Assembly: GCA_012295275.1 (NCBI GenBank)
Contig: CM022673.1
Location: forward strand, 4,278,001-4,342,000
Reading direction: 5' to 3'
Source: Chrysomallon squamiferum
Lineage: Eukaryota; Animalia; Mollusca
DNA length: 64,000 bases
A model generated the notes under the pieces. It was not told the origin of the DNA and made no database searches. It saw nothing but the letters and a program-made list of their open reading frames with translations. Of the stretch, positions 26,535 to 64,000 are shown piece after piece. The position numbers and the translations under genes are program-made. Each line of letters opens with the position of its first letter. Within the stretch, counting starts at the first letter, position 1.

Positions 26535-28809
26535 AATAAATAAATAAATAATAATAATAATTTCTTACATCAGGCAAGGTATTTTACAAATAGTTAATAA
26601 GGACTGATGGTATGTACTTGTTTAGAATGTGTACAAAAAATAAATAAATAAAAGTAATATACAGAAATTTGACAAAACAGAGCCTAATATAATGGTGGAG
26701 TTACTTACTGCACTATGGAAACTTTTTAGTAATATGATAATATATCTTATATAGCAAAATAATATATAGCAAATTAAGGATAATTTATTGATCATCAAAT
26801 TTCTGTATGTTATTTTAAAGCAATACATTATCTTAGATTTTTAAGCTCTGACTTGGAATTAATACAATTAAAAAACTTAATTTGTTTAGGATATTTACAT
26901 AAAGGATGAAGTATATGAACAGCAATGCTCCTATTTCAGTAACTAGACACTTATCAAATGCACTTTTATCTTACTGCCAGTGATCTTGTTCAGCATGCGA
27001 TAGATGAATAACAGGTGTATATATCAAATGAATTAAGAAAAATGATACTAATTATTCATTCAACATTCAACAGATACTATAATGATCTAGTAAGGAACAT
27101 GCTTGTTTACCTTGTGCCATCTGCAAGTCTTATTTGAATACTGGTCACTGGTTTGGAATTGTCTACATCTGGACTGACCTCTTTGGTGGTCGATGTAGTA
27201 GTTGCTGTCACAACATGTGGAGCAGGACTATATAAAAGAAAAAATTACAATTTACACATTAAACATAAAATTTGTGTACAGCACTTTTGCGTAAATAATT
27301 CAAGTTTCACAAGAACCATATTAAAATATTTATTAATATTTATTTTTAAAATATCAACATTGAATATACAACACCTGTTGGAATACAATTTTAATTGTTT
27401 TTTTTCTAATATCATTTAGGAACTAGACACTGAAACTACAATCAGTTCATTTTAACTTGGATATCTTCAGGAAATCATTTTTATTGCAGATTTGAATGAT
27501 AATAATAAGCATGATTTATTAATTTTATTAGCATAAATAAACAAAATTTTAAAAAACATGCAAACGTTATAAATATTGTAACACTTCGCTATTGCAGTTA
27601 TAGAACACCAGTATTATTCTGGAAACTGTACAATATGTGAAATACCAACCTGCCCAACAAATGCCCTTCTCCTGTGAAAGCTTTCGTTGAAGTTTTTGGT
27701 TTGACATATTGTTCATTCCTGTGATCTTCCATATTCAGGTTCACCTCTCCACCCCGAGCTTGTCGCACCAATTCCTTTGGCACTTCACTGTAAAATTAAT
27801 ACAAGAAAACAAAAAACATGTCATATTTATTTTCTGAGACATTTTGATTGGCATACATCCATTCATTTACGTTTGTGCACATACACTTGTGCTACACATA
27901 TACACAGGTTTATTCATACCTGTTCATATGTGTGTGTATATATGTATGTATATGTGTGTGTATATATATACAAATACGCACTAATAAATACAAACATACC
28001 AACCCATAAACATATGTATATAAACAAGTGCCTATACAACAGACAGACAAAAAGATAAAAATAATGTGTCAATACAAAATTTATCATCTCTTTCAGGTAA
28101 TTATTATTATAATTATTATTATTATTTTGGTTTTGTTAAACCAAAGGGATTTTAATTTTATCTATTCTCAAAGCAACATGAACAGATATCATTGCAAATT
28201 AATACAAACCCTTTCTTAATGGATTCAAGAAATTCCTGGTTGGTAGCATCATTAAAGTCACGTATAGGCCCATCATCAATACTGAACCCATCTTTCCACA
28301 GTTTTAGCACCATATCAACCTGAAACACCAATCAAAAATAAATTATTTATCCAAATGACTTTTTTTTTTAATAGTCCAAAATACTAAATGCAAATTGCTG
28401 ATGAATTTGAAAAGTATATTTTACAGTACAATTTATATATAATCTGTATTTATTTTACATTTAGTATAATTAATTTTTTTTTCATTTTAGATAAGTGAAA
28501 TGTTATCATAATGCACATTTTGTTATCTAGAACCAAAAATATTTTTATCTTTAATGTTTCAGATAAATGCTGTCCTTAATTTAACACTTCTGTCCTAACT
28601 GTGTGCAAAATAAGCAATCACAAAGTAAATCCAACAGATAATAACTATTTCATGAAACTATCCCAACTCCAAAAGCCTGTTTATAAATATAAATGTACAG
28701 TGTGCCATAAATAATGTTTTTTTTAATTCAAAACACATCAGCTATGCCAGCTGGTATAGATTCAGAACTTTAATTTGTGACTGCTTCATTGAGTCAATTT
28801 GTATGTGAA

Positions 28810-28869
<60 letters not shown>

Positions 28870-30755
28870 CAGACAGACTTTGGTGAAGCAGTCACAAATG
28901 AAAGTTACACACACACTCAAACACAAATGCACAGATACACACACACAAACACAAACCTGTCTGGGTTGAGAAGGACCTGATCGCCCAGGAATAACCACAG
29001 AATCAGCTTCTGTCTCTCCCAACCGATAACCTGTACCAACAAAAGTTGATGTTGACCGTCTCTTCGCACCTGTGTCGTCCAACACTTCAGCACCATGCCT
29101 AGCATACAGATATTCAACTGTTAATTTTGATTCAATTCAAAAAGTCTGTTAACAATCAATTTAATCCACAATTTGATTTGTATTCCATTTCTTAAAAAAC
29201 AAATGCCACTAATCAAAATTAAATTTTTCAAAATTAAAACTGTGTTATTAGAATTTTAGACAAAGTTACATAAATAACTTACTCCTTTGCTGACTGAAAC
29301 AAACTATCCACAACCTTGCTACCTTTTTTCTTTGATGGACCCAAAATCTGCTGTCCACTGCAAAATAAAAAAAAATTAAATTAAAATTTTAAATAAATAT
29401 GTCTTTTTTTAAAGAAATATCCTTTTTTTTTTTTAAACAACATTACTTTAAATAAGCTGTATGTTGTTTTTTTATGAATGTATTAATTGAAAATATTTCA
29501 AATACAAAATCATAACATATAAGAAATGACAAATATTAAAATGTTAATTTTCAGTAGCTCTTGAATTCAGTAATATAAATCCCATAATGAAAGCTCCAAC
29601 AAGTTGAATTTGTTAACAAATCATATAACCTTCTTTCTGATCCGCCAGCATAAAATGCTTGAGTTTCATTATCTGAATCACTGTCATCAGATTCATGTTT
29701 CAAACTCCCAATAGTAGCAAACCTGAAATAAAAACAATTTTTTTTTAAATTAAAACAAATAAATAAAGATAGTTTCATGAACATATACCACAAAGTCAAT
29801 CTTAATGTAACTAAATTATGATGTAAAAACAGACCAATGATACTATGGTGTCATTTCTAAATGTATAAACTATACATCATAAGATTTCTTATCAGTATAC
29901 AAATAATTATTTTATATAACTGAACCTTGAAGTAGCTGTCTGATGCTGCCTTGCAGCACTTTCAGGTGGAGGTATATCATCATCAAGAATATCACCTGAT
30001 CGAGCAGCACCTTCACCATCATCATCATAAAAACTGGCCATAGCAAGCTTGAAAATAAAATAAATTGTTAATAGATATTTAGCTTAAATTGATGAATAAT
30101 ATATTTATTTTATTATTTTTTAAAGTATGAATTTAATTACTGAGTAGGGAAAGAAAAGGCAACATTATTTAATAATATGATTTTGCTAGTAAATTAAACG
30201 TTTTATTCAGTTTACCAAAAACGTCTTTAAGATTACTGATATTTTAACTTGTTTATGTAATAGTTTTTAATTACTGTTCATCTTTCATCTACTATAAAAA
30301 TGTAATGCTAATTAGTTAATTATAAAATAACAGTTTCTATTCTTAACTTCCCTAAATTCAATTTAACAATTTATTTCCAGCTAAATTAATCACTGCCATA
30401 AATGCAAACAGATGACAGTGTCTTAGTATATAACACTAAGTTGCACTGCTTCTGTTGTTATTATGTCGCATAATTATAAAAATTGATTTCTTTCTTAGTT
30501 TGCTTAGACGAACGTCAAGTAGAAGAGCACTGCATTATGTATACACTACAGCATTGGCGTAACGTTATTCAACACACTTCTGTGAAGTAAATGATAAATT
30601 TATATCACTAATCTTTTAGGAAGTTTATCACATAAAGAAAAGTAATTTACCTCTAAATTCCATGAAGCAGATTCAAGATAAAATCTTGCTCTGTCGTGGT
30701 CGATGCCGGTGACATTAACAAATTGTTGAATAATATTTTCGTTTTGGTCTGCCAT
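25566..30755 (-). CDS. NSFL1C: NSFL1 cofactor p47 (UBA-SEP-UBX p97 adaptor), 10 exons
   Basis: Exons 30651-30755 ([17 protein letters not shown]...[13 protein letters not shown]), ~29926-30047, ~29630-29722 (QAFYAGGSE), ~29283-29358 (SGQQILGP), ~28957-29098 (FVGTGYRLG), ~28209-28319 ([16 protein letters not shown]), ~27650-27788 ([10 protein letters not shown]), ~27110-27227 (IQIRLADGT), 26379-26438 ([11 protein letters not shown]), 25566-25698 ([10 protein letters not shown]...[11 protein letters not shown]). Confidence 0.96.
25699..26378 (-). other. U12-type (minor spliceosome) GT-AG intron, last intron of NSFL1C
   Basis: Donor GTATCCTTT at 26378; branch site TTCCTTGAC at 25708-25716 about 10 nt before the AG; no polypyrimidine tract; splicing keeps frame (NFITS|SRPQY). 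Confidence 0.9.
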
Positions 30756-38682: not shown

Positions 38683-39483
38683 TTATAAATTAAGTTCTGG
38701 CAAGGCAATATAATCCTTCAATGATTTTGGTAGAGGAAGCATTTTTAACTTCTCGATAAAATGTGGTTTTAGAATATGCCTGAGGCAAACACGGCACTGT
38801 TGAAGTAGATGTACAGGTCTCACATCAATATTTAGATTTGCTTCAACAATTTGATAATACTGTGAAATACTGTACATCTGGTATGCTGAGGGTTTTTCAA
38901 ATTTGGCCCCAGCAAAAATTAGCATCTTGGTCAATTCTAATTCATTCTGGACAAGAGCAGATATCAGAGGAGTCATTAGCTGTCCATCCACCAACCCACT
39001 GATCTGAACATCAGCATTATGCTGAAGAAGATGCTTGATAGAATCCACCTGTCTTTTCTGGACAGCATAGAGAAGTGGTGTCTTGTGCAAATGGTCAACT
39101 GCATCAGGATCAGCCCCAGCATCCAACAACAGGGACACTATGTCAGATCTGCCTCGGATAACTGCTGCATGTAATGGTGTTTGGCGATGTTTAAACGATT
39201 TGTGGTTTAAGTCACTCCCATAATGAATGAGAATTTCAACAGCAGTTATGTCAGGTGAGAACATGACTGACCACGAAAGTGGACTAATTCCAGCCCATGA
39301 ATCGCAATGGACGTCTGCTTCATTCTCTAGAAGAAGAGACAAGACTTGAACGTGTCCTAATCGTGCTGCCCAGCACAGTGCAGTGTTGAGCTCAGTCTGC
39401 TGATGTTGATGTGTAAGAAGCTGAAGAACGTCTTGCACACTGCCAGATTTCACAGCATCCAACAAAGAAATTAATTCCTGCAT
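38683..39483 (-). CDS. Ankyrin repeat and SOCS box (ASB-family) protein, intronless, 266 aa
   Basis: About five ankyrin repeats (NTALCWAARLGH, GISPLSWSV, QTPLHAAVIRGR, KTPLLYAVQ, MTPLISAL) and a SOCS box PVHLLQQCRVCLRHIL...LPLPKSLKDYI. Confidence 0.92.
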   Translation of the reverse strand: MQELISLLDAVKSGSVQDVLQLLTHQHQQTELNTALCWAARLGHVQVLSLLLENEADVHCDSWAGISPLSWSVMFSPDITAVEILIHYGSDLNHKSFKHRQTPLHAAVIRGRSDIVSLLLDAGADPDAVDHLHKTPLLYAVQKRQVDSIKHLLQHNADVQISGLVDGQLMTPLISALVQNELELTKMLIFAGAKFEKPSAYQMYSISQYYQIVEANLNIDVRPVHLLQQCRVCLRHILKPHFIEKLKMLPLPKSLKDYIALPELNL

Positions 39484-41546: not shown

Positions 41547-49905
<8,359 letters not shown>

Positions 49906-52575
49906 AATAATAAAAAAAAATACCATCTCATCATCGAGTTATCTGTCCATAAAGAGGGCACAAACAGACATTTATATTTATTATCTGAGCAGCTTTTAAA
50001 CAGATACTTTTACCAGTGAAGAACATTTCATTACAAAATGTTTTCTTCATCTAAAGATGTAGCTTTTCCTATTTTTTTACATAGTACATGTGTATAGTAA
50101 TTTATTGTTTGACATACTTTTTATATATTCTCAGCTTATTATGGGTTTATCACCTATTTTAGAAGTTTTAGTCTGCAGCATCTGCTAGAAATAAATGTTA
50201 TTTTAATAATTAACTGGCTACTCTCATAAAAGTTATGTTTTTCATATGGAAAATATTGTCTATGGGCATTGTCACTTTTAATAGGGCATGTATCCTTTGG
50301 AAAATGGACATTTTTATTTCTTTTTTCAGCCAGTATATTTTTAAATTCTTCACAGCAGAAACATTAAAATATTACTAGTTGTTGAAAATTTGAAAAACAG
50401 TTTTCCATATGTTATCTAAATGTACCAGTTGCTGACTTTTAGAACAGCCAGGAGAGGGGGAAAATGCCCTTAGTAAAAAAGACAAGTACGGTGCACTGTT
50501 CTGTCTTAAAATTCATTGGTAAATATGCATTGTACTGTACAAGAAGTCACTGGTACAATTATGCACTTTAAAAGATGATTAACTTGTACACTGTAACATA
50601 ATTAATCTCATTTAATTTAGTTCTTATGTAAATTCACAATCTGCATTATTATTATTATTCATTTATTTATTTTTATATTTGTCCTTTTTTAAAATAAACG
50701 TATATTTTAATATCGATCAAGTCCTTGCATATTGTTTTTCTTAACAAGCAGATTATAAAAAAATACTTTAAGGCAGAAAAGATATTTTTAAAAAATACAT
50801 GTTATTTTGTACTAATAAATCCAATTTTAAATGTTAATGTTAAAAAAAAAAGAAGAAATTTTAAGTTTTAAAAATGGAAACAAAGAAGTTATATTTTTTT
50901 GTTGAAAATTAATATCCATCCACTGTTTAACAAACATTTAATTATCATTAAAGATAATATACTACTATTAAATTGGAATTTTTGTTTTATACAATTTAAT
51001 ATTTGAATTTCCATCCATGAAATCACGATATTTTTACAGAAATTAATTCTTAATGTTTTTTGTTTTTTTTAATGTAGATGTATTAATCTAGTTTTATTAA
51101 ACAGAAGCCATTATCTTCAGTCAACTTGAAATAATTGTCACAAATATCAAAATATTAAATACTGATCCTCACTTTTGTAGTCCTCATTATTTTAAGCTGT
51201 GAACTGTGATACACAAACTTTAATTTTATTTATTGTTTATTGTTTATTTTGTGATATATTGTAAATAAATGCATTACAAATATGAAATTTGAAGTTCATT
51301 CTCATACAATCTGTTTTTGATAAAAAAAAACCTAAAAGGTGATGTGTTCATTCTCCTAGTTGGAACGTTAAGTGTGTTTAACATCACCAAATGTCATGTA
51401 AAACCGAACACCTTAACTCAGTACTGAACTTTAATATTTAAACACAATGCATTACGTGGAATCACAACATTAATGAAAACGTCAAACACAAGCTAAGTTC
51501 ACAGACGTCTATTGTCGTCTCCCATCATTTTACAACGAATGAATGAATTGGTATTCCTACACAGATTCACCTTGCTTGTGAAATCACATATAGTAAATAT
51601 AAAGTGCACCTACCTGTGAGTGGGAATTTTTTTTAAAAAGTGGCCTAAATATAGTGTCCATACTTCCATTTTATAACTATTCTTATCTGTCGGCCAATCT
51701 TTGATGTAAAAAAAACAAAAAACACAATAAAATATTTTTATTAAAGACCACTTTTCCCTTATGTAAAATGATGTCAGAACGTCGACTGCAGGTCGTTCTC
51801 TAGTATATATGTTTCTTCTCAGAAATAATTTTTGAATATTTCTGCATTTTTATTAATTCATTAATTTATTAATTAATTTAATTCAGGATCTTTTAAACAG
51901 AAACTACTAAAAATGGACACTTATTTATGCAAACTTCATGGTATATGAAAGGTTTCATAAATAAAGACCGGAACACTAGCTTTTAAAATGTGTACGTTCG
52001 TTCGTTTATAATTACAAAATCATTAATAGAATATTTCAAACTAAGAAGTAACTGAAGTTATTATCAATGGTATCGCTAACAGGTACAGTCTGTGAGCCAG
52101 TAATTTCAAAGTATTGGCAAGAAAATAATAATTCGAAAACCATTTCTCTGTAAAAATAATTAAATAAAATAAACCATTTGATTTCAAGAAATAACTTAAT
52201 TTGTTTTCAAAAAAAACAAAAAGTCTTCAATAAAATAAAACAACCTGTACCAGTATATTTTCTTATAATTATTGCTGCTGTTACTATTACTACTACTATA
52301 CTACTATACTACTGCCACTACTACTACTATTATTAACAATAATGATAATTAATTAATAAAAAAAAAATACGAGTTTAAACTCACCTTTATATTTATTGCC
52401 TGTAAATAGAAACGTATATTACGTGATTAAAGTAACGAAGTTAAAGACTGTTATCTGGCATTATTAACCTACATTTATAAACAGTGACGGAAGATATATC
52501 TATTTATACAAAGGGAACAATACACAGGGTATTCCCTATACCCGAGATAAATTTAGTGCTTATGTTATGTCAAAA

Positions 52576-52776
52576 ATGGCGGCTTCCAAAGGTACGTTTT
52601 TTTTCTTTCAACAGTTTTTAACTTTTATTTCTGTTAAATAATTTTCAGACACTAAAGAAGTTAAGAATTCATTTTTCTTTTAACCCGCTCTTACGTGCTA
52701 TGGTATAATGGAATTGAAGTGAGATTCATGATATGGTATTGTTACATTTACAAATCATTATCATCATCATCATCAG

Positions 52777-52808
<32 letters not shown>

Positions 52809-53854
52809 TGAATTCATCTAAAGAAACATTCTGAAAAGATTGTTTCAGTATTACATCCTTTTTATTTTAAAGAAAAGATTTTTTAAAAATAGAAAAATAA
52901 TTCAGTAGCATATCGTGTTTGTTTTTGTTTGGTTTATTTATTTATTTATTTATTTATTTATTATTTTCTTTTGAGGTTGGGGTGGGTTTTATTTGTTCGT
53001 TTTTTCACATTTTATCGAACGCATACAATGATTTAGTGAAGAATATATATTAAGACAACTAATAATTATTGTTCTTCTTTTCCTTCTCTTCCTTCGACCT
53101 TCTTCCTCCTCCTCCTCCTCCTCTTCTTCTTCTTCTTCTTCTTCTTCTTATTATTATTATTATTATTTGTAATTGCAGGAGGAAAGCCTATTGGCGCCAC
53201 TGGTATTATTTTTTACAGCGTCGTTTGTTTCGCAGCAGCTTCTGTCATGACTAACGTAAATGATTTTTGTTTGTTTTTATCGAACAGTAAACCCTCGATT
53301 TAATGGACTTACGATTTACTTGGACAGAAATATGTCCGTCTAATTCGCCAGCGTCATATTTACATACACACACATTTTATAAAAAATAAAGATTATATGA
53401 TTCTAGCTACATATGGTCAAGAATTATAGACATTTTACCTAAATCTACTATTTTGGAGTGAAAATATAATGTACAGCAGCACAAAGGCTGACAGTCTGAA
53501 ATGTCCTTCAAACACTTCAAATATCATATGAACTGACAACTCTGAATGTATTTGTTAACAAATCTGGTACCCAAAATAGGCCTATCTTATAACCGCATGT
53601 GTTCATACTTATCAACAGTAGTTAGAACATGTTTATGCCTGTCTAGATGTTTGTAATTGTTAATTTTTAAAATTAATTATTATATATATATTAAGTATTG
53701 CTTGAATATTGATTCCTTGACTGAGTGCTCGTTTCGACTGATTAAAAATGGTTCGTTGTTGATCGACGATTGGTCGGTTGATTCATTGAATGATTATAGT
53801 TCTTCAGTTGTATCCACTGAGACTTTGAGGATAATGATTTATTTTTTTTTTTTT

Positions 53855-53887
<33 letters not shown>

Positions 53888-54398
53888 TTTTTTTTTTTTT
53901 TTAGAATGTTGATAATATAAGAACTTTACCGGTTAAACGAATGTGTTCCAAAAAAAATATTCACAGTCTTGACAGAGACATTAGACTATTACTTTGTGGA
54001 GTTTGTCCAAAAGGCAAATATTCTTATGTAGCCTCAGCATCTAACAAATTCCACTGCAAAGCTTGTCCTGATGGCCACTACAACGACGGGACGATGGTAA
54101 AGTGCAAAAGATGTCGAAATTGTACGAACGTCGTAGCAAATTGCACTGCAGTTCAAGACACAGTGTGCCAACGTCACTACAAAAGACTTAAAAAAATGAT
54201 AGGTAAAGGATATTACAGTATTTCAGAAAATGAATGACATCAACTGAATTAACCTGAATTTCCCTCATATAATAATATACTACAACATTTTCCAAATATA
54301 ACCAACAACCCTTATCTACTGTTGGCATTTAATGTATCTTTATTCTGATTTCAGAAGACCCGTTTTTACAGGTTAATTTGTTCGGAATAGAAACTATT

Positions 54399-54484
<86 letters not shown>

Positions 54485-57400
54485 AAACAATATTTCACTA
54501 ATCAGTCCAAAATATAGTTCTTTACATGTATATTTCAGAAAAAAATATCTCCTATTTTCGAATTCGACACGAAAAGACCAAGAGTCGGAGATTACTCAGA
54601 GAATTTCATAGCAAAGCATGTAAGCCAGACGTAAATCATAAGGTATGTTGACAATTTCAACATGCTATATGCACAGTTATCATTATTTATAATATAAAGT
54701 TATCCGAGAACGCTATTTTCAGTAAATAACAGAAACATTTTAATATATTTCTTATAGAATTGCTTTGATCATACAACATCAGCTCCAGAGGATCCTGGAA
54801 GAAAACAACCCATTAATCAGACAACAGAATATAATGAAACAGAATCAAAGAAAACCACGGAACTGGAAGAAGAAGAACCACAATCTTTTTACAATGATAA
54901 AGGAAACGTTGTACTAATTATAGCAATAGCTACTGGTAAGTATGGAGTCAAAGATTAGCAAACGAGAACAATAGATTTACATCTCATCGCAATTGTTAAT
55001 AAAACTTAGCTGGTCCGATATAACCAACTGAAGATTTACAGCACGATATTTGCAGTTAACTGTCTTAGTACTCTGATACAAGTTAAAAAAAATAACAGTT
55101 GCAAAAGAATCAGATAATTAATAATAACAACAATAACATTATCTACAACAACAATGAAAATATCATCAATAACTACAATAATAACAATAATAATATAGTA
55201 AACAGTCAGAGGTAATGGGCAAAATGTAGGTTGATTAATTACTTTATGAAGCAGTGTATTACCCCAAGAACAGTATATGCCATCAATAACTGACGCTACG
55301 AACGATACATCACATTAACTGTGGGTTGATTGGTCACCATTAGCACACATAATCTGATGCATATTTTAGTCATAACATTTATTTACCTTCGCTGGTCGAG
55401 GTTGTCGAGAATAAATCGGTATCTCTCAAGTTGAGTTTTTTATAATGTATGTACGTATGTGTGTGTTTAAATATATATAAAACTTTTGATCTTGAGAGGT
55501 ACCGATTTATTCTCGACAACCACGCTCACGCCAAAACATGAACTGAAACTGTTTCTTTCTTTTCTTTAATATTTAATATTATAAACTGTGAGTACATTAG
55601 GTACTTCATACTACAGTATTAAAATTACACAATTATAATATTACAATACTGTCTTTTATAATATGGAGCATATATTCTAATTCACTAATTAAAAAAAGAA
55701 CTTGTAAAGACTGGATTTGATTTATTTGTCATTATTATAATGAAGTGTTTATTTCATTTCAGGTGTGTTTTTTGTTGTTTCTATGGTATCAACATTCACT
55801 ATAATACTGGCACGGAAAAGGATAAATAGAAAATTGCATGGTCGTGAAACTCAAATAGAAAGTGTCGAATATGGTGAAGCGTGTAATCTGTCAAAATTAA
55901 ATTTGAAGAGAGCTGATTTAGAAGAAATGATGTACAAGTCTAAATCTGAATCAGAAATATTATCTGTTTATCACTCTGAACGAAATTCAAAGTCATCGTT
56001 TCAAAGTTACAGAAGTATCATTTCGATTCCTGTAACTTTTCCAACTTCATCAAATGAAGAATCTATGAATACAGTGTTAAAAAAAGTTGAGAATGGTGAA
56101 AGATTTCATGAACTGATTGGAAAAAATGTACATTACGAAAATAAAAATGTACTTACTACGTACCAACAGGTAAGTTCTACTCAGACACCAGAACGCGATC
56201 TTCCCAGAAACATATTTAATGGTCTTTGGGATGCATTCGAAACATTCAATCAGGACGGGGGCCGCTTGTTTAAAGGAAAATCAAGTGCGGAGTTACTGAT
56301 TCCTGAAGGTGCTGTTGCGAAGGGAGACAACTTAGAGATACATGGAGCAGTATTCACTGATCTAACACAGATGAGAGAGGTATTTCGGCTCGATCCAGAT
56401 GAATGGATTACTTCGGTTGCTGTAGAGTTCTACAAACCAGATAAAAATCCATTTTTGACGGATGTTATCGTACGCCTTCAACATTGTCTATCACATGGTT
56501 ACAATCGGGCTATGTTCAAGGTATTCTGGTTTAGACAGGACGAGAAAGGTGATATCGTTAAAGAATTAGTCCTTGCAGAAAAATCCTCATTGCAGGATGA
56601 CTTGCCATGGTTTGAATTTGGATCTGAAAACACAATATTGATACATACACGCCATTTCAGTGGCTTTGTCTGCATCTACTGTGGGCATCAAGATATACCA
56701 ATATCATTAACAGCAATGGTTTTTGGAAAGCACCTTTTCAAAGACTCGGTTCACCACGAAGTCTGTGTGTCACTGTTCTTGTGGGATACTAAGTGCTTCA
56801 TAAAGGATTTTCATGTAAGAGTGTATGATTTTTGTTTATTATTTTTCTTTCTTTTTCATATTACAGGTACCGGACCAATTATCCGGAATCCTTGGGGTTC
56901 CCGTTTTCTGGTACAAAGGCATCTAAATACGTAACTAATTAGGCATAAACATTTTAAAATTAAAAACATAAAGAAAATTATCGATAGACAACTGTGACGA
57001 CTCGACACGTAAACAATGCGGCGAGTGAATGAACGCCACGCGACTTGAAAGAGTAGTTCCGGTCTGATGAGGACAACACCCGCGCGCGCGAACAATGAAA
57101 ATAGCGTCGGGAAAAAACTTCCGGTTTTCTGGTCTTTCCGGATTTCAAGGCGCCGAATAATTGGTCCGGTACCTGTATTATTATTATTATTATTATATTC
57201 ATGCATTCATTCATTCATATTAAAACTATTTTACTTAAAGAAATATTTCCACTTTTCAATACTATAATAGCGAAAAAGATTTGTAACTGTATTGTCAGTG
57301 TGTTTATATGTGGTGTAAACTGCAGGAGTATTATACACGCATGATGAGCAAAGGAATGGAAATGTTTTCGGAAAAAGAAATTGAACTGATGGATCAAACG

Positions 57401-58597
57401 CCCAGAGACAGTCTGCTGATCTGTACACTGCAACCATGTGGAGATGATGCCGACAAATGGCAACACACTCTAAGACCAGACAACCAAAACCCCATTTTTG
57501 AACAGAAACAGGTAAAACATTTAAGACTGGTGTCAGTATGATATAATAATAATAATAATAATAACTAATTTTGTTCATAATTTTTGTTACAGTTTTGTCG
57601 TTGTTATAATTGGTAATATTTCTTCAGTGTTTTACGTGGGTTTTTAAAGAAATAAAAAACAAAACAAAACAAACAACAGCAACAAAAACAATCAAGGAAT
57701 GTTTTTTGATTAAAACCGCAGAATGGTAACATTACCACGAGAAGTAAAAATTGGTTGATTTTGTAAATTGTAAACTTTTATATGACCAGTTTTATACCTG
57801 CACTAGAAAAACAAATTACAGCGAAATATTGAGTAAAATATATATTAACAAGCAGTAGATTTAAACTGTAATATTACTGAATATATTACTACACCTCTGT
57901 CAGATAATGATAATCGTTACCCAAGATAAATACCACTTCCTCTAGTCCAAAAATAGATGTAAAAAGAAGGGAGGTAACTCGAGATTATGTCAATAAATTA
58001 AACTTAATAATTACATCACTGAAATCTTGAAAAGTATAAAATTATTAGATGTTTCTTCTTCATTTTTTTTTTTAATGAAATTCATTCAACTTTCAATTTA
58101 AAAAATTTTCAAATATAAATAGATAATTTTAAATATTAAATAATATATATATATATAAATAATATTTATTATTATTTTAGAAAATTAAACTTCACAAAGT
58201 AGTGAAGTGCTGCCGAGAATCAGGTCCTTTTCTGGCTGAATGGGCTATGACTGGGAAGCAGACGAGGCACACCGAGTTTCAGTGCATTGTCGATATTGAG
58301 CACGTGCTCTGCGAAACAGAAGACGACGCTGACACTCGAACAACAATTTATATCTCCGATTTTCCCCCCAGTGTTGGAAATCAGTACGCTTCTGGCAGGA
58401 ATGACGAGCTTAAGCGTTTAGACGGCAGATACGAGGTACGATCAGTGCTGGACTGTAACTACGTAAATACGTGCTTAGGTCGTTTAGAAATAGGGACCCA
58501 CTGTGTACCGGTACTGACCGTTTTAGCGATCAAATTTAAAATAAATTGCAAATTCTCAAGTAAAGGTCTGGTGTGAAATAATTGCTATTAAGCGTTA

Positions 58598-58649
<52 letters not shown>

Positions 58650-58701
58650 TTTATATTTAATGTAGTTGCGTTTTCCGGTTAGTGAACAATTTGTTTTCTT
58701 A

Positions 58702-58737
<36 letters not shown>

Positions 58738-58975
58738 TAAACCAGAAACATTTCTTGTCCACTATTTTAAATATATATATATATTGATAGTCATTTACGA
58801 TTACGTTGAACATTAACATGATCTAGGTGCTCAGTAAATTAATCAAATGTAATTTTAAAAGTATATTTTTTATCTCTCCACTGATAAGATGCATCGAAAT
58901 TGATTTTATTTTTCATCAAATATGTATACAAAGTATGTAATAACGTCGCAACTACAAAGTTGATGCTAATTTTGA

Positions 58976-59020
<45 letters not shown>

Positions 59021-59838
59021 AATTATTTATTTACTTATTTATTTATGTATGTGTTGTTGTTTTTTTCTTGTACAATACCTTATTAGCAGCAAAGATTGTT
59101 AGCTTATAACAAATAATACAATACCTTTTGTCTTGATTTTATTAGAACTTTGAACACTTCGACCGAACCAGAAATATGCAAGAGAAAATAAAAGCTGTCG
59201 CCAAACAAATGACTGTTCAGCAAGCAGAAGATTTTGCAAACAAATATTTTGGAATCCAGCAGCTGTCATCCTGTCGCCCCGACCGGTGTGTTATGAAACT
59301 GAGTTTTAATAAAATAATAAAAGTAATATTAATAATAAATAATAATAAAAACGTTAAAAAAAAAAGTATGTGTTGTTTAAAATAAGAAATGCATAATGAT
59401 TGCGTAGCAGTTAACAATTTTATCGTACAACTCAGTTATTATCTAAATACTTTTTCTTAATTTCTTTTATTGGTGGTGATGGTACATAAAGAAAAAGAAG
59501 GGAAGAAGAACTAGAAAATGCAATAAACCAAAAGTAGCTTTGAAAATAATTGTGACTGCTGTTGTTGTTTCAGACATCTTCCTGATATTCTTTTAACGAA
59601 AATGAATGTTTTGAACGAATGCTTTCGTCGAAATCCTGAAGATTTTGAAAAGCTCCTGGCTGATCATTCTCCTGAACTACCTTGGAAGAAAATGGAATCA
59701 AACTCGTTCACAAAACCGATACAGGAAGTCGGTGAAGTGGACGAGACAAACCCGAAAGTTGTTAACAGCGACGACGAAATCAGTAGCCGGAAAGTGGCGG
59801 AAGATGACGAAGTACGTTTTTTAGAAAGCAAAGTGTAG
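52576..59838 (+). CDS. Type I membrane receptor: TNFR cysteine-rich ectodomain, stalk, TM, ZU5-UPA module, short helical C-terminal domain (10 exons)
   Basis: Phase-compatible exons 52576-52591, 53179-53255 (hydrophobic signal-like), 53905-54202 (CGVCPKGKY...CKACPDGHYND...CKRCRNC...NCTAVQDTVC), 54539-54642, 54758-54935, 55763-56814 (TM VVLIIAIAT|GVFFVVSMVSTFTIILARKR; ZU5 FNQDGGRL...LLIPEGAV...VIVRLQHC...HTRHFSGF), 57326-57511, 58181-58435, 59146-59285, 59574-59838. Confidence 0.82.
55400..55521. repeat. 31-bp near-perfect inverted repeat with 60-nt spacer (intronic hairpin)
   Basis: GGTTGTCGAGAATAAATCGGTATCTCTCAAG / CTTGAGAGGTACCGATTTATTCTCGACAACC, one mismatch. Confidence 0.9.
56864..57175. 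mobile_element. Intact MITE (Tc1/mariner-pogo type), 312 bp, TA target duplication
   Basis: TA|CAGGTACCGGACCAATTATCCGG ... CCGAATAATTGGTCCGGTACCTG|TA. Confidence 0.9.
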
Positions 59839-62459: not shown

Positions 62460-63483
62460 TTTTTTTTTTTTTTTTTTTTTTTTAATGTATTAATTCAGTT
62501 TGTATTGTATTATTTTATTTTATTCTATTTTCTTTTATTAATAGTACTATTATTAATGTTTATTTTTTATTAGTATTTTTTTTTTCTGTTATATGTACGT
62601 ATGTATGTGGGATTTAGATATGTGCGTAAGTGGGTGTGTTTGTATGCGGGCTTGCGCGTTTGTGTGTATAGGTAAGAAAGATAAAAATATTTCTCAGTTT
62701 TTACTGGAAGCAGGATAAATGGTTTGGCACCTGCACATTCAAAGCAAAAGGTAAAATGTTGATTTTGATAATACTGCTTTGTTCGTCACAGATGAAATGA
62801 AAAATCACCAAGCAGAGCATAAAAATGTCAGAATTGTGTGTTGGATTCTGATAAAAGACGCCAAAGTCTTCGCCATCAACTCTAAGTTCGTCAACAGTAC
62901 CTGGGGACGTAAGTGCAACAGAATGGTCTTCTTCGTTTCCGAATACAACTCCAGCCTTCCAGCAGTCGGTTTCGATAAAGAAATAAACGAAGGCCTCAAC
63001 AAGAGTTTTTCTATGACTGTTCTTGGGTTCCGATACGTTTTTAACAAGTATCTCAACGAAGCTGATTGGTTCCTTGGTGTGATTGGCAGCCAGTATTTCA
63101 TTATGGAAAATTTGCGTCATTTCCTTTCTCAGCTAGACTCCGCCCATCCGGGTTACTATGGGCATAAGCTGTGGTCATCGGCGAACGGCGGGATGGTCAT
63201 TGCTAGTCCGTATTCGGGAATAGTTTTGTCCAAAGCAGCTTTAAAAAGACTAGGCAATGAAGGATACAAAATAGAGGACTGCAATTACTACCCGTATGTC
63301 ACGGGTGAACTGTTTTCTAGATGTATGGAGCAGATCGGGGTGACTCTTATGGACACCGTCGACAACAAAGGAAAAAGTCGATTTCTAACGTCTTCATTGT
63401 CAAAACAGTTTGAACCTGATTATAAAATATATCTTTGCAACCATTCCTTTTGGAAAGATTTAGAGCCACTGAATTGCAAACAG
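62087..63483 (+). CDS. GT31 C1GALT1 (T-synthase)-like type II membrane protein lacking catalytic acidic motifs; 3' end unresolved
   Basis: Exons 62087-62288 (N-terminal TM) and 62792-63483 (VRIVCWIL, STWGRKCN, EADWF..., MENLRHFL, GIVLSKAALKRL, CMEQIGV...D..GKSRF); donor at 63484. Confidence 0.85.
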
Positions 63484-64000
63484 GTTATTAACTGGGTTTT
63501 TATTTGTTTGTATGTTTGTTTAACAACTATTATTATTATTATTATTATTATTTTAATTAATGTATTAATTTATTTTTCATGATTAAAATTTACTATAATA
63601 TTAACACCGTGTGTTAGGTAGAAAAAAGAAAGGAATGAAAGAGGATTAATAATTGAAGCATTAGTTTTCTATAATTATGTCACCTCGTGCGATTATTGTT
63701 GTCATAGAAACAATAATAGTGACAGCCGCAGCAATAGTAGTAGTAGTTTAAATTAGAAAAAGAAGAAAAAAGAAATAATGAATCTTCTTTATCTGCCATC
63801 ATGTAGACACGAAAGCTAGCATTTTGAAACTCCTTTAGATGCAGCGTAAAGATGCAGCGGCCGGGAAGGGAAATAACTCTATGGACGCATCAAACAAAAT
63901 TAATTGGGCAAGTATATAACTAACAGCTGAACGATAGCGAGTTTCAAAATAATAATTATGATTATGACAATGACAAAAGTAACCGGATCTAGAATAATTT

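Follow-up and report, generated by a model that had tools for sequence, protein, structure and literature searches.

The nearest known protein to the receptor described here is vertebrate UNC5CL (ZUD), in which, according to PMC10084454, a TM helix without an ectodomain precedes a self-cleaving ZU5-UPA-DD tail. Self-cleavage is also known from PIDD1, NLRP1 and CARD8, where it is constitutive and the resulting halves remain associated (NLRP1 and PIDD1, PMC9162469; CARD8, PMC3210808), and Ser, Thr and Cys are the three residues which serve in this chemistry (PMC9162469). In NLRP1 and CARD8 the UPA, as stated in PMC11874512, helps the assembly of death-fold domains. TNFRs are described as non-enzymatic and as signalling through adaptor recruitment (PITA preprint), and those parts of the TNFR literature that were examined make no mention of a ZU5-UPA insert.

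The locus analysed here lies on the forward strand of the window, by which we mean the whole 64,000-nucleotide stretch of Chrysomallon squamiferum DNA. It encodes a protein with a type I membrane layout comprising a signal peptide, TNFR cysteine-rich domains (CRDs), a TM helix, ZU5, UPA and a death-domain-like tail. In the literature searched, coverage of which was partial, no description of a receptor combining TNFR and self-cleaving ZU5-UPA modules was found.

Gene model and exon connectivity

Ten exons, separated by introns of which all nine are of the GT-AG type, join in frame to give 2571 nt encoding 856 aa without an internal stop. Exon 1 (52576..52591) is predicted and supplies the start codon and aa 1-6; its ATG precedes a GT donor, and the frame carries on into exon 2. 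The latter (53179..53255; aa 6-31) carries the signal-peptide-like hydrophobic part as judged by hydropathy, while exon 3 (53905..54202) encodes the TNFR cysteine-rich region recognised by PF00020, with 10 Cys (C45-C119; nt 53944-54168). Exon 4 (54539..54642) contributes the basic part of the stalk and exon 5 (54758..54935) its acidic/Thr-rich part together with the first half of the TM helix. The remainder of the helix, a cytoplasmic linker of approximately 130 aa, the ZU5 (nt 56206-56682; PF00791) and the start of the UPA are all encoded by exon 6 (55763..56814), which is uninterrupted from the end of the TM helix through the ZU5 to the HF/S motif. Exon 7 (57326..57511) continues the UPA, which ends in exon 8 (58181..58435) with the conserved C647/C648. 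Exon 9 (59146..59285) is predicted to form helices 1 and 2 of a death-domain-like bundle, lies in frame and aligns with the tail of the Gigantopelta orthologue (P0001), whereas exon 10 (59574..59838) encodes the rest of this bundle, an acidic tail and the stop.

RNA contigs, examined over positions 52000-57600, connect exons 2 and 3 (X2 record 8), exons 3 and 4 (X3 record 13) and exons 4, 5 and 6 (X2 record 9), the exon 5-6 joint being additionally represented in X1 record 4 and X3 record 14 and thus present in three of three RNA runs, all from one study. X1 record 7 contains exon 7 followed by a further 398 letters, which, though unaligned, is consistent by length with exons 8 and 9 (395 combined). 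In run X5 the sequence continues from those exons into introns. A tblastn search with the Gigantopelta orthologue supported exons 3, 6, 7, 8 and 10 in the expected order, with E values of 5e-19, 1e-15 and 1e-8 for exons 7, 8 and 10, respectively. The RNA contigs cover every joint between exon 2 and exon 6, so that TNFR and ZU5 are parts of a single spliced gene, a conclusion which we hold with near certainty. A first-pass annotation of this DNA had proposed exactly such a gene joining TNFR, TM and ZU5, and the RNA contigs speak against the separate transcripts that it had named as a possible refutation.

The ZU5-UPA module and a predicted pre-cut receptor

At 33.8 bits, against a cut-off of 21, the exon 6 frame matches the PF00791 ZU5 profile. 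The protein layout recurs in the Gigantopelta orthologue, with an identity of 64% across the ZU5 and 59% across the UPA as against 27% in the linker, and the sequence of this orthologue, standing in for the window's own tail, was used to build a structural model (pLDDT 87.4). Across the ZU5-UPA this model resembles UNC5B most closely (Foldseek E 4.6e-18; Z 20.0, rmsd 3.4, 283 residues aligned) and the CARD8 FIIND to a lesser degree (Z 12.9). Modelling of the orthologue therefore supports the ZU5-UPA fold which the first-pass annotation had anticipated; its placing of the UPA behind the ZU5 stands likewise, although it had missed the death-domain-like region that follows the UPA.

The His-Phe-Ser codons are located at 56653..56661, precisely where the earlier annotation had put them, and correspond to His522-Phe523-Ser524. 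In the orthologue model this motif lies just before the last ZU5 strand, as does the cleavage site of CARD8 (PMC3210808). Among the 147 aligned rows that have a residue there, related to each other and gathered with one seed so that the counts are not independent, the nucleophile column holds S in 92, T in 29, C in 24 and another residue in two (145 of 147 S/T/C, compared to a background of 17%). Five columns are at least 90% S/T/C, yet the nucleophile column alone swaps among all three residues. The Phe is found in 141 of 146 rows, the His in 115 of 147, the latter being absent from two of the nine TNFR-bearing rows (QFC and RFS). Owing to this conservation, which points to selection for a nucleophile at the PIDD-type HF/S site across the family, self-cleavage between Phe523 and Ser524 is predicted with good confidence.

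Employing these data, we tentatively propose, while giving the proposal slightly less than even weight, a single-pass receptor that cuts itself on folding and signals once the severed half has been set free or uncovered by an extracellular ligand. Cleavage during folding would proceed, like that of PIDD1, via an N-to-O acyl shift and would yield a membrane-bound product of 523 aa (59.8 kDa with the signal peptide) and a 333-aa half of 38.8 kDa. The small half would begin with the last ZU5 strand, and for that reason may stay clipped to the membrane half and be kept silent. If a ligand clusters the membrane half or drives its turnover, the UPA and the death-like bundle might then be freed and could bring in adaptors that lead to NF-kB or caspase signalling. 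Consequently, this would be a receptor that is pre-cut and loaded rather than cut on demand. The notion of ligand-gated cleavage, as put forward in the first-pass annotation, is not borne out by the known ZU5/FIIND proteins, which cut constitutively and whose halves stay associated; by analogy, cleavage is probably constitutive here also, with the halves staying together, and what the ligand governs is more likely release or opening than the cut itself. Given cleavage, we somewhat favour the view that signalling depends on release or opening.

The resemblance to UNC5B admits another reading, which we judge unlikely while ranking it first among the alternatives, namely that the tail, whether cut as a form of maturation or left uncut, never leaves, and that an intact ZU5-UPA-DD opens on ligand binding. 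UNC5B provides the best structural match to the orthologue tail and its UPA and DD fold back on the ZU5, thereby silencing the DD (PMC9162469), while the C-terminal half has four conserved cysteines (C528, C531, C647 and C648) that could stabilise such a module. A dimer prediction for this half, for which the alignment was not used, scored 0.00 and is evidence neither way. However, UNC5B carries a Leu where the essential Phe stands (PMC3210808), canonical UNC5 proteins lack self-cleavage (PMC10084454), and the almost invariable retention of F-[S/T/C] is hard to explain for a useless cut.

Tail, ectodomain and distribution of the family

Following the UPA, at aa ~731-801, the window protein contains the death-domain-like region. 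The last 85 residues of the orthologue match the death domains of ankyrin G, RAIDD, FADD and TNFR1 at Z 9-10 (rmsd 2.2-2.6), values that are within reach of helical bundles through common arrangement alone; death domains reach Z 10.0 as against 6.8 for CARD-containing entries, and the helix-3 region is of low confidence even in this model. Atlas features of the orthologue tail point to Death clusters (0.90), whereas an Atlas structure search with its low-confidence model returned no death domain. In the window protein, the exons of which were scanned separately, the bundle has no Pfam match, and it is 14 aa shorter than that of the orthologue, the gap falling after aa 795 within exon 10, in the helix 5-6 region.

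This loss, together with a tail identity to the orthologue of 38% compared to 59-64% across the ZU5-UPA, and the several relatives which end without a detectable bundle, would suit a decoy or modulator in the window's lineage, with a decayed bundle and output through the UPA or a short adaptor motif, or with no role beyond soaking up ligand. A P-x-Q-type motif near the C-terminus of the window protein (PIQE, aa 817) and of its Gigantopelta and Potamilus relatives could be such an adaptor motif, but shuffling the window's tail 10000 times produces a TRAF2-type motif in 3205 cases, so that the motif is weak evidence. The Lingula death domain is picked up at E 1.4e-5 in a set of 169 sequences by a profile built from seven mollusc tails, profile-to-profile alignment gives E 8.8e-5, and the ZU5-UPA and HF/S are strongly conserved, all of which leaves the decoy reading improbable.

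Exon 3 matches PF00020 TNFR_c6 at 31.5 bits (cut-off 29.4). Its cysteine-rich part amounts to one full CRD (C85-C119) and one partial, so that the TNFR assignment of the first-pass annotation is upheld although its plural 'repeats' overstated the case. The best PDB sequence match of the CRD is osteoprotegerin (E 4.7e-5), this protein and OX40 being closest among solved structures. A fold search with the CRD gave no match at E <= 0.001, the best being at E 0.054 with TNFRs leading, tied with the cysteine-rich domain of the calcium-sensing receptor. A Kyte-Doolittle scan revealed two hydrophobic peaks only, one signal-like (aa 9-33) and one at aa 212-242 that corresponds to a TM helix at about aa 215-241. 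The ectodomain is about 185 aa long and includes a stalk of ~95 aa that is basic at its start (15 K/R among the first 45 residues) and in which a furin consensus was not found.

Proteins combining TNFR and ZU5-UPA occur in the gene models of nine other named invertebrate species from three phyla, namely gastropods, bivalves, a brachiopod and a brittle star. In the Lingula relative TNFR_c6, ZU5 and Death all exceed their Pfam cut-offs in one chain, while the PF00020 cut-off is passed by only two of the seven representatives having a PF00020 match. The UniRef name of the Lymnaea relative is 'Netrin receptor UNC5', yet its ectodomain match is TNFR_c6. Relatives on the same branch include one from Potamilus with galaxin-like repeats and others from Biomphalaria, Elysia, Lottia and Haliotis with no recognised ectodomain; as the close Biomphalaria and Elysia relatives lack a CRD match, the ectodomain is dispensable or these gene models are short. 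The TNFR-bearing rows do not form one clade: a quick tree of 89 rows requires eight changes (133 of 500 shuffles were as low) and a careful tree of 40 rows seven changes in TNFR presence, of which at least four are forced, both trees being without a named UNC5CL sequence as outgroup. A word-index protein search found only P0001, whether queried with exon 6 (one of 1814 candidates) or with the P0001 tail, which recovered itself (one of 5761), and a profile search confined to proteins of 2198-5000 aa, which returned none of 2134 candidates, is uninformative on distribution.

The scatter of TNFR-bearing rows, the varied or missing ectodomains on the same branch and the presence of only about 1.5 CRDs would fit an UNC5CL-like or dependence-type signaller with a freely swapped ectodomain and no TNF-family ligand, with a role outside immunity, in development or stress. 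We regard this as more doubtful still, since a TNFR-type CRD recurs across the nine species, the window CRD is nearest to osteoprotegerin and OX40, and molluscs possess TNF ligands (PMC8995041). Finally, that a short TNFR gene and an adjacent ZU5-UPA gene have been wrongly joined is highly improbable: no single RNA contig covers both the CRD and the ZU5 and the three RNA runs share one study, but contigs bridge every joint from exon 2 to exon 6, exon 6 is unbroken from TM to HF/S and the fusion recurs in nine other species.

On a more far-reaching reading, the protein could represent an old bilaterian TNFR class, predating the protostome-deuterostome split, in which a TNF-type ligand is coupled to an NLRP1/PIDD-style pre-cut release switch. 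Such a receptor might supply the activator that molluscs lack upstream of CRADD/caspase-2, PIDD being reported absent from them (PMC11463336), and its tail may have been the source from which cytosolic self-cleaving proteins expanded in gastropods, with caspases, ankyrins and NTPases as fusion partners; as a whole we offer this as a speculation that we judge unlikely.

Comparison with described receptors and sensors

The first-pass annotation chose its comparators among PIDD1, NLRP1/CARD8, UNC5 and vertebrate TNFRs and overlooked UNC5CL, the nearest known design (PMC10084454). Both proteins place a TM helix before a ZU5-UPA tail, which ends in a DD in UNC5CL and in a DD-like bundle in the window protein, with cleavage predicted in the latter. 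UNC5CL is devoid of an ectodomain, whereas here splicing links the exons for the CRD and the stalk with those for the TM helix, the window protein having in addition a signal peptide, a TNFR CRD, the ~95-aa stalk and the ~130-aa cytoplasmic linker. The top Atlas match is a 493-aa chordate ZU5+UPA+Death cluster (score 0.95), the layout of which fits UNC5CL, a name that we infer from its domains.

PIDD1 shares with the window protein a His-Phe-Ser ending a ZU5, followed by UPA and, in PIDD1, a death domain (PMC9162469), but has LRRs, two ZU5 domains, two cuts and no TM helix, while the window protein has a TM helix and one ZU5, and neither its exons nor the whole orthologue gave an LRR match in Pfam. 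The ZU5-UPA fold is common to the FIIND of NLRP1/CARD8 and the window's family, as the orthologue model indicates, and self-cleavage with retained halves is a further predicted likeness; in contrast, NLRP1 and CARD8 are cytosolic proteins with SF/S and a CARD, where the window protein has HF/S, a DD-like bundle and a TM helix. UNC5A-D are likewise type I receptors with a ZU5-UPA-DD tail, as modelled for the orthologue, but bear two Ig and two TSP1 domains outside and are without self-cleavage (PMC10084454), and neither Ig nor TSP1 was matched in Pfam by the exon 3 and 5 frames or by the whole orthologue. With the TNFR death receptors (TNFR1, Fas, p75NTR and molluscan TNFRs) the protein shares a CRD ectodomain, a single TM helix and, by prediction, a death-fold tail.

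The design, called unusual in the first-pass annotation, appears new in that no earlier description was found in the literature searched, but it is no isolated oddity as the family spans molluscs, a brachiopod and an echinoderm. The layout is likely to be an undescribed means by which extracellular signals reach immune or death pathways, and offers a candidate route from surface signals to caspases or NF-kB in molluscs, where CRADD and caspase-2 are reported while PIDD and TRADD are reported missing. UNC5CL-type tails would gain a putative ligand-binding counterpart, several database records that now carry the names UNC5 or TNFRSF11B or the label uncharacterized would have to be renamed, and the existence of scallop and pond-snail copies makes tests practical. 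A TNFR with its own self-cleaving module would unite two designs that have so far been known separately, the death receptor at the cell surface and the sensor controlled by release, as in PIDD1, NLRP1 and CARD8.

Gene layout and predicted fold

The gene comprises ten exons on the + strand (window 52576-59838); its introns are GT-AG in 9/9 cases, and the joined exons give 856 codons with no internal stops. The predicted protein opens with a signal-like stretch (aa 9-33), followed by ten exon 3 cysteines (C45-C119), a stalk, a TM helix (about aa 215-241), a linker of ~130 aa and a ZU5 domain ending near the HFS motif (aa 522-524), whose codons were located in the spliced protein at 56653-56661, exactly where the first-pass annotation had put them. 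A Pfam scan of eight frames, seven belonging to the gene, assigned exon 3 to TNFR_c6 (31.5 bits against a cut-off of 29.4) and exon 6 to ZU5 (33.8 bits against 21), while the exon 5 and exon 7-10 frames, scanned singly, gave no Pfam matches. The annotation of TNFR-type cysteine-rich repeats holds as to type; as to number, the cysteine pattern gives one full cysteine-rich domain (CRD; C85-C119) preceded by a partial one. The stalk behind the CRD is strongly basic, with 15 K/R in 45 residues (aa 120-164; window 54169-54303 and 54539-54642), as it is in Gigantopelta, Solemya and Lymnaea, and is non-basic in four other relatives; it may bind glycans or form a shedding site.

The orthologue of Gigantopelta aegis (P0001) aligns end to end with the window protein (identity: CRD 40%, linker 27%, ZU5 64%, UPA 59%, tail 38%) and pairs with it in the tree at 100/99 support. 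Its residues 432-870, modelled from an alignment with 66 relatives as a stand-in for the window tail, gave a fold of pLDDT 87.4 and pTM 0.79, for which Foldseek returned the UNC5B cytoplasmic domain first (E 4.6e-18) and ankyrin ZU5-UPA next. Among 48,161 chains compared, UNC5B scored Z 20.0 (rmsd 3.4, 283 aligned) and the CARD8 FIIND Z 12.9. A ZU5 fold with a UPA-like region after HFS is thus predicted by the model, as had been proposed.

Predicted cleavage site, tail and ectodomain

PIDD1 is cut at His-Phe-Ser through an N-to-O acyl shift, and the nucleophile of such self-cleaving proteins is Ser, Cys or Thr (PMC9162469). Across 151 rows, of which 150 are relatives and one is the window's model, the column of Ser524, which follows the predicted cut, held S 92, T 29, C 24, G 1 and D 1 with 4 gaps, against an S/T/C background of 17%; five columns were at least 90% S/T/C and this one alone swaps among all three residues. 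His was conserved in 115 of 147 rows, and the nine TNFR-bearing rows read HFS (5), HFT (2), QFC (1) and RFS (1). This conservation is the pattern expected of selection for the chemistry, although the aligned rows are kin. Four cysteines within the predicted C-terminal half are also conserved (C528 in 139/147 and C531 in 134/145 rows, window 56671-56682; C647 in 84/89 and C648 in 56/61, window 58208-58213) and could form a zinc site.

By analogy and from the model, we consider the receptor most likely to be already cut, and we infer its ligand, release and output. This reading draws on the constitutive cut of NLRP1 and PIDD1, whose halves are described as remaining joined until a trigger breaks the complex (PMC9162469), on the co-purification of the CARD8 halves (PMC3210808) and on the strand that comes directly after the site in the orthologue model. 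Because of that strand the predicted C-terminal half (333 aa, 38.8 kDa) would remain fastened to the membrane-bound half, and ligand would govern release or opening of the UPA and death-like bundle; UPA favours filament formation in NLRP1 and CARD8 (PMC11874512). An UNC5-like switch that works intact is unlikely, though to be taken seriously: UNC5B is the top structural match, and it is reported (PMC3210808) as non-cleaving with Leu where Phe stands, a Phe conserved here in 141 of 146 rows. A lophotrochozoan survey records CRADD as present and PIDD, PYCARD and TRADD as not found (PMC11463336), which makes the TNFR-ZU5-UPA family a candidate upstream partner of CRADD.

The first-pass annotation, right about ZU5-UPA, had overlooked a tail after the UPA that appears to be derived from a death domain. 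In the structural comparison, residues 355-439 of the orthologue model resemble several death domains: that of ankyrin G (Z 10.0, rmsd 2.2, 83 aligned) and those of FADD, TNFR1 and RAIDD, the last of which we take chain 2of5_A to be. Atlas features point to a ZU5+UPA+Death cluster (score 0.95) and, for the tail alone, to Death clusters (0.90), the Atlas structure search with the tail not finding a death domain; and a profile of seven mollusc tails, the window's among them, finds the Lingula death domain among 169 sequences (E 1.4e-5). Inside exon 10 the window tail is 14 residues shorter than the orthologue's, shortening the helix 5-6 region, so that its bundle may be a remnant; that the receptor is a decoy whose death domain has decayed is distinctly unlikely.

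The CRD model was moderate (pLDDT 74.8), and in its fold search no match reached E 0.001, with osteoprotegerin, DcR3 and OX40 standing level with the calcium-sensing receptor below that threshold. By sequence, 6/6 PDB matches were TNFR-family ectodomains (best osteoprotegerin, E 4.7e-5), including UL144, presumably a viral TNFR; a ligand other than TNF appears quite improbable.

Transcript evidence and neighbouring elements

The gene is real and expressed. Exon 6 is present in five sequencing runs, four of them recorded as RNA from a single study, and four of the five were aligned against window 52000-57600. Contigs bridge exons 2-3 (run X2 record 8), 3-4 (X3 record 13), 4-5-6 (X2 record 9) and 5-6 (X1 record 4, X3 record 14); exon 6 is uninterrupted from the TM past HFS, and bin 54244-54430, inside intron 3, has zero depth in the three RNA runs aligned. 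Among the contigs aligned on 52000-57600 none spans CRD to ZU5 singly, the RNA-bridged joints running from exon 2 to 6, and with these joints the objection that the two parts lie in separate transcripts fails; the chance that they are two genes is negligible. X1 record 7 carries exon 7 and 398 letters behind it, exons 8+9 amounting to 395 in an unaligned length comparison.

Run X5 continues from exons into introns. Its record 22 holds 87 extra letters, a multiple of three, at window ~55865 (exon 6, cytoplasmic linker), which read as an in-frame linker length variant of another individual or close strain. In intron 6, a small element (56858-57181) with 29-nt terminal inverted repeats (93% complementary), adjoined by TA at both ends, reaches an X5 depth of 64,096 against about 52 in exon 6 and has the features of a high-copy MITE, which we take to be Tc1/mariner-like. 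Elsewhere in the window, a C1GALT1 (T-synthase)-like frame (62755-63582 +, E 9.6e-24), which has other residues in place of the solved enzyme's Asp-rich motif, is possibly inactive or chaperone-like; an ordinary single-exon ankyrin-repeat and SOCS-box gene lies at 38683-39483 on the - strand; frame 44826-45368 +, with several imperfect ~21-aa repeats and no convincing Pfam match, belongs to the upstream gene; and exons at 28786-29850 (-) resemble p47/NSFL1C in their motifs, the one exon scanned having no Pfam match.

Family distribution and known designs

The P0001 query against 1.84 billion representatives returned 154 matches, and among the best 150 at least seven carry PF00020 at E 0.01 or better, two of them above cut-off, as judged for nine proteins from the best five families of each: Gigantopelta, Lymnaea, Babylonia, Solemya, Mizuhopecten, Lingula and Amphiura. 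Cluster mates add TNFR domains in Pecten (27.6 bits) and Batillaria (55.4 bits), so that the predicted TNFR plus ZU5-UPA layout recurs in at least nine named species of three phyla; of the other 149 representatives, species names were taken for 30. In Solemya and Pecten, alignment to the query identifies the ZU5-UPA, without a Pfam match. The Lingula protein has TNFR_c6, ZU5 and Death above Pfam cut-offs in a single chain. Many other matches place the same module after ankyrins, NTPase domains, Rel homology, SH2/PH, kinase or galaxin-like repeats, or before caspases.

In a quick tree (89 of 151 rows, each with at least 250 core residues), 8/9 TNFR-bearing rows fell on a 19-row side (SH-aLRT 98; hypergeometric p 8e-6, kinship of rows ignored). 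A second, more careful tree, built from 40 rows picked by hand, with no outgroup and its deep forks unstarred, roughly tracks species order: deuterostomes with Lingula, bivalves, Lottia with the window pair, heterobranchs, then caenogastropod TNFRs, which group with 21 mostly cytosolic rows (98/92). This would fit a layout that arose once, long ago, and was later lost or swapped in places; TNFR rows alone form no clade there (seven changes, at least four forced), and repeated shuffling is a possible source of the layout. Ten ZU5(HF[S/T/C])-UPA fusions (P0009, P0018, P0026, P0029, P0038, P0044, P0046, P0104, P0129, P0136), with caspase, ankyrin, NTPase, Rel homology, SH2/PH, kinase or KY-like partners, look like an expansion of signalling proteins with predicted self-cleavage; the few named members in that part of the tree come from caenogastropods.

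Database entries of relatives carry automatic names (UNC5, TNFRSF11B, TNFR-Cys domain-containing, uncharacterized). A TNFR-ZU5 receptor was undescribed in the literature searched, which consisted mostly of titles and abstract openings and lay largely outside subscription journals, figures and supplements, and a term search of the PITA preprint gave 0 occurrences of ZU5; within that scope the layout is not already well described, each part being known and their union in one receptor not found in print. The nearest design found is UNC5CL (PMC10084454), which resembles the window protein in joining a TM to a self-cleaving ZU5-UPA-DD and differs from it in having no ectodomain.
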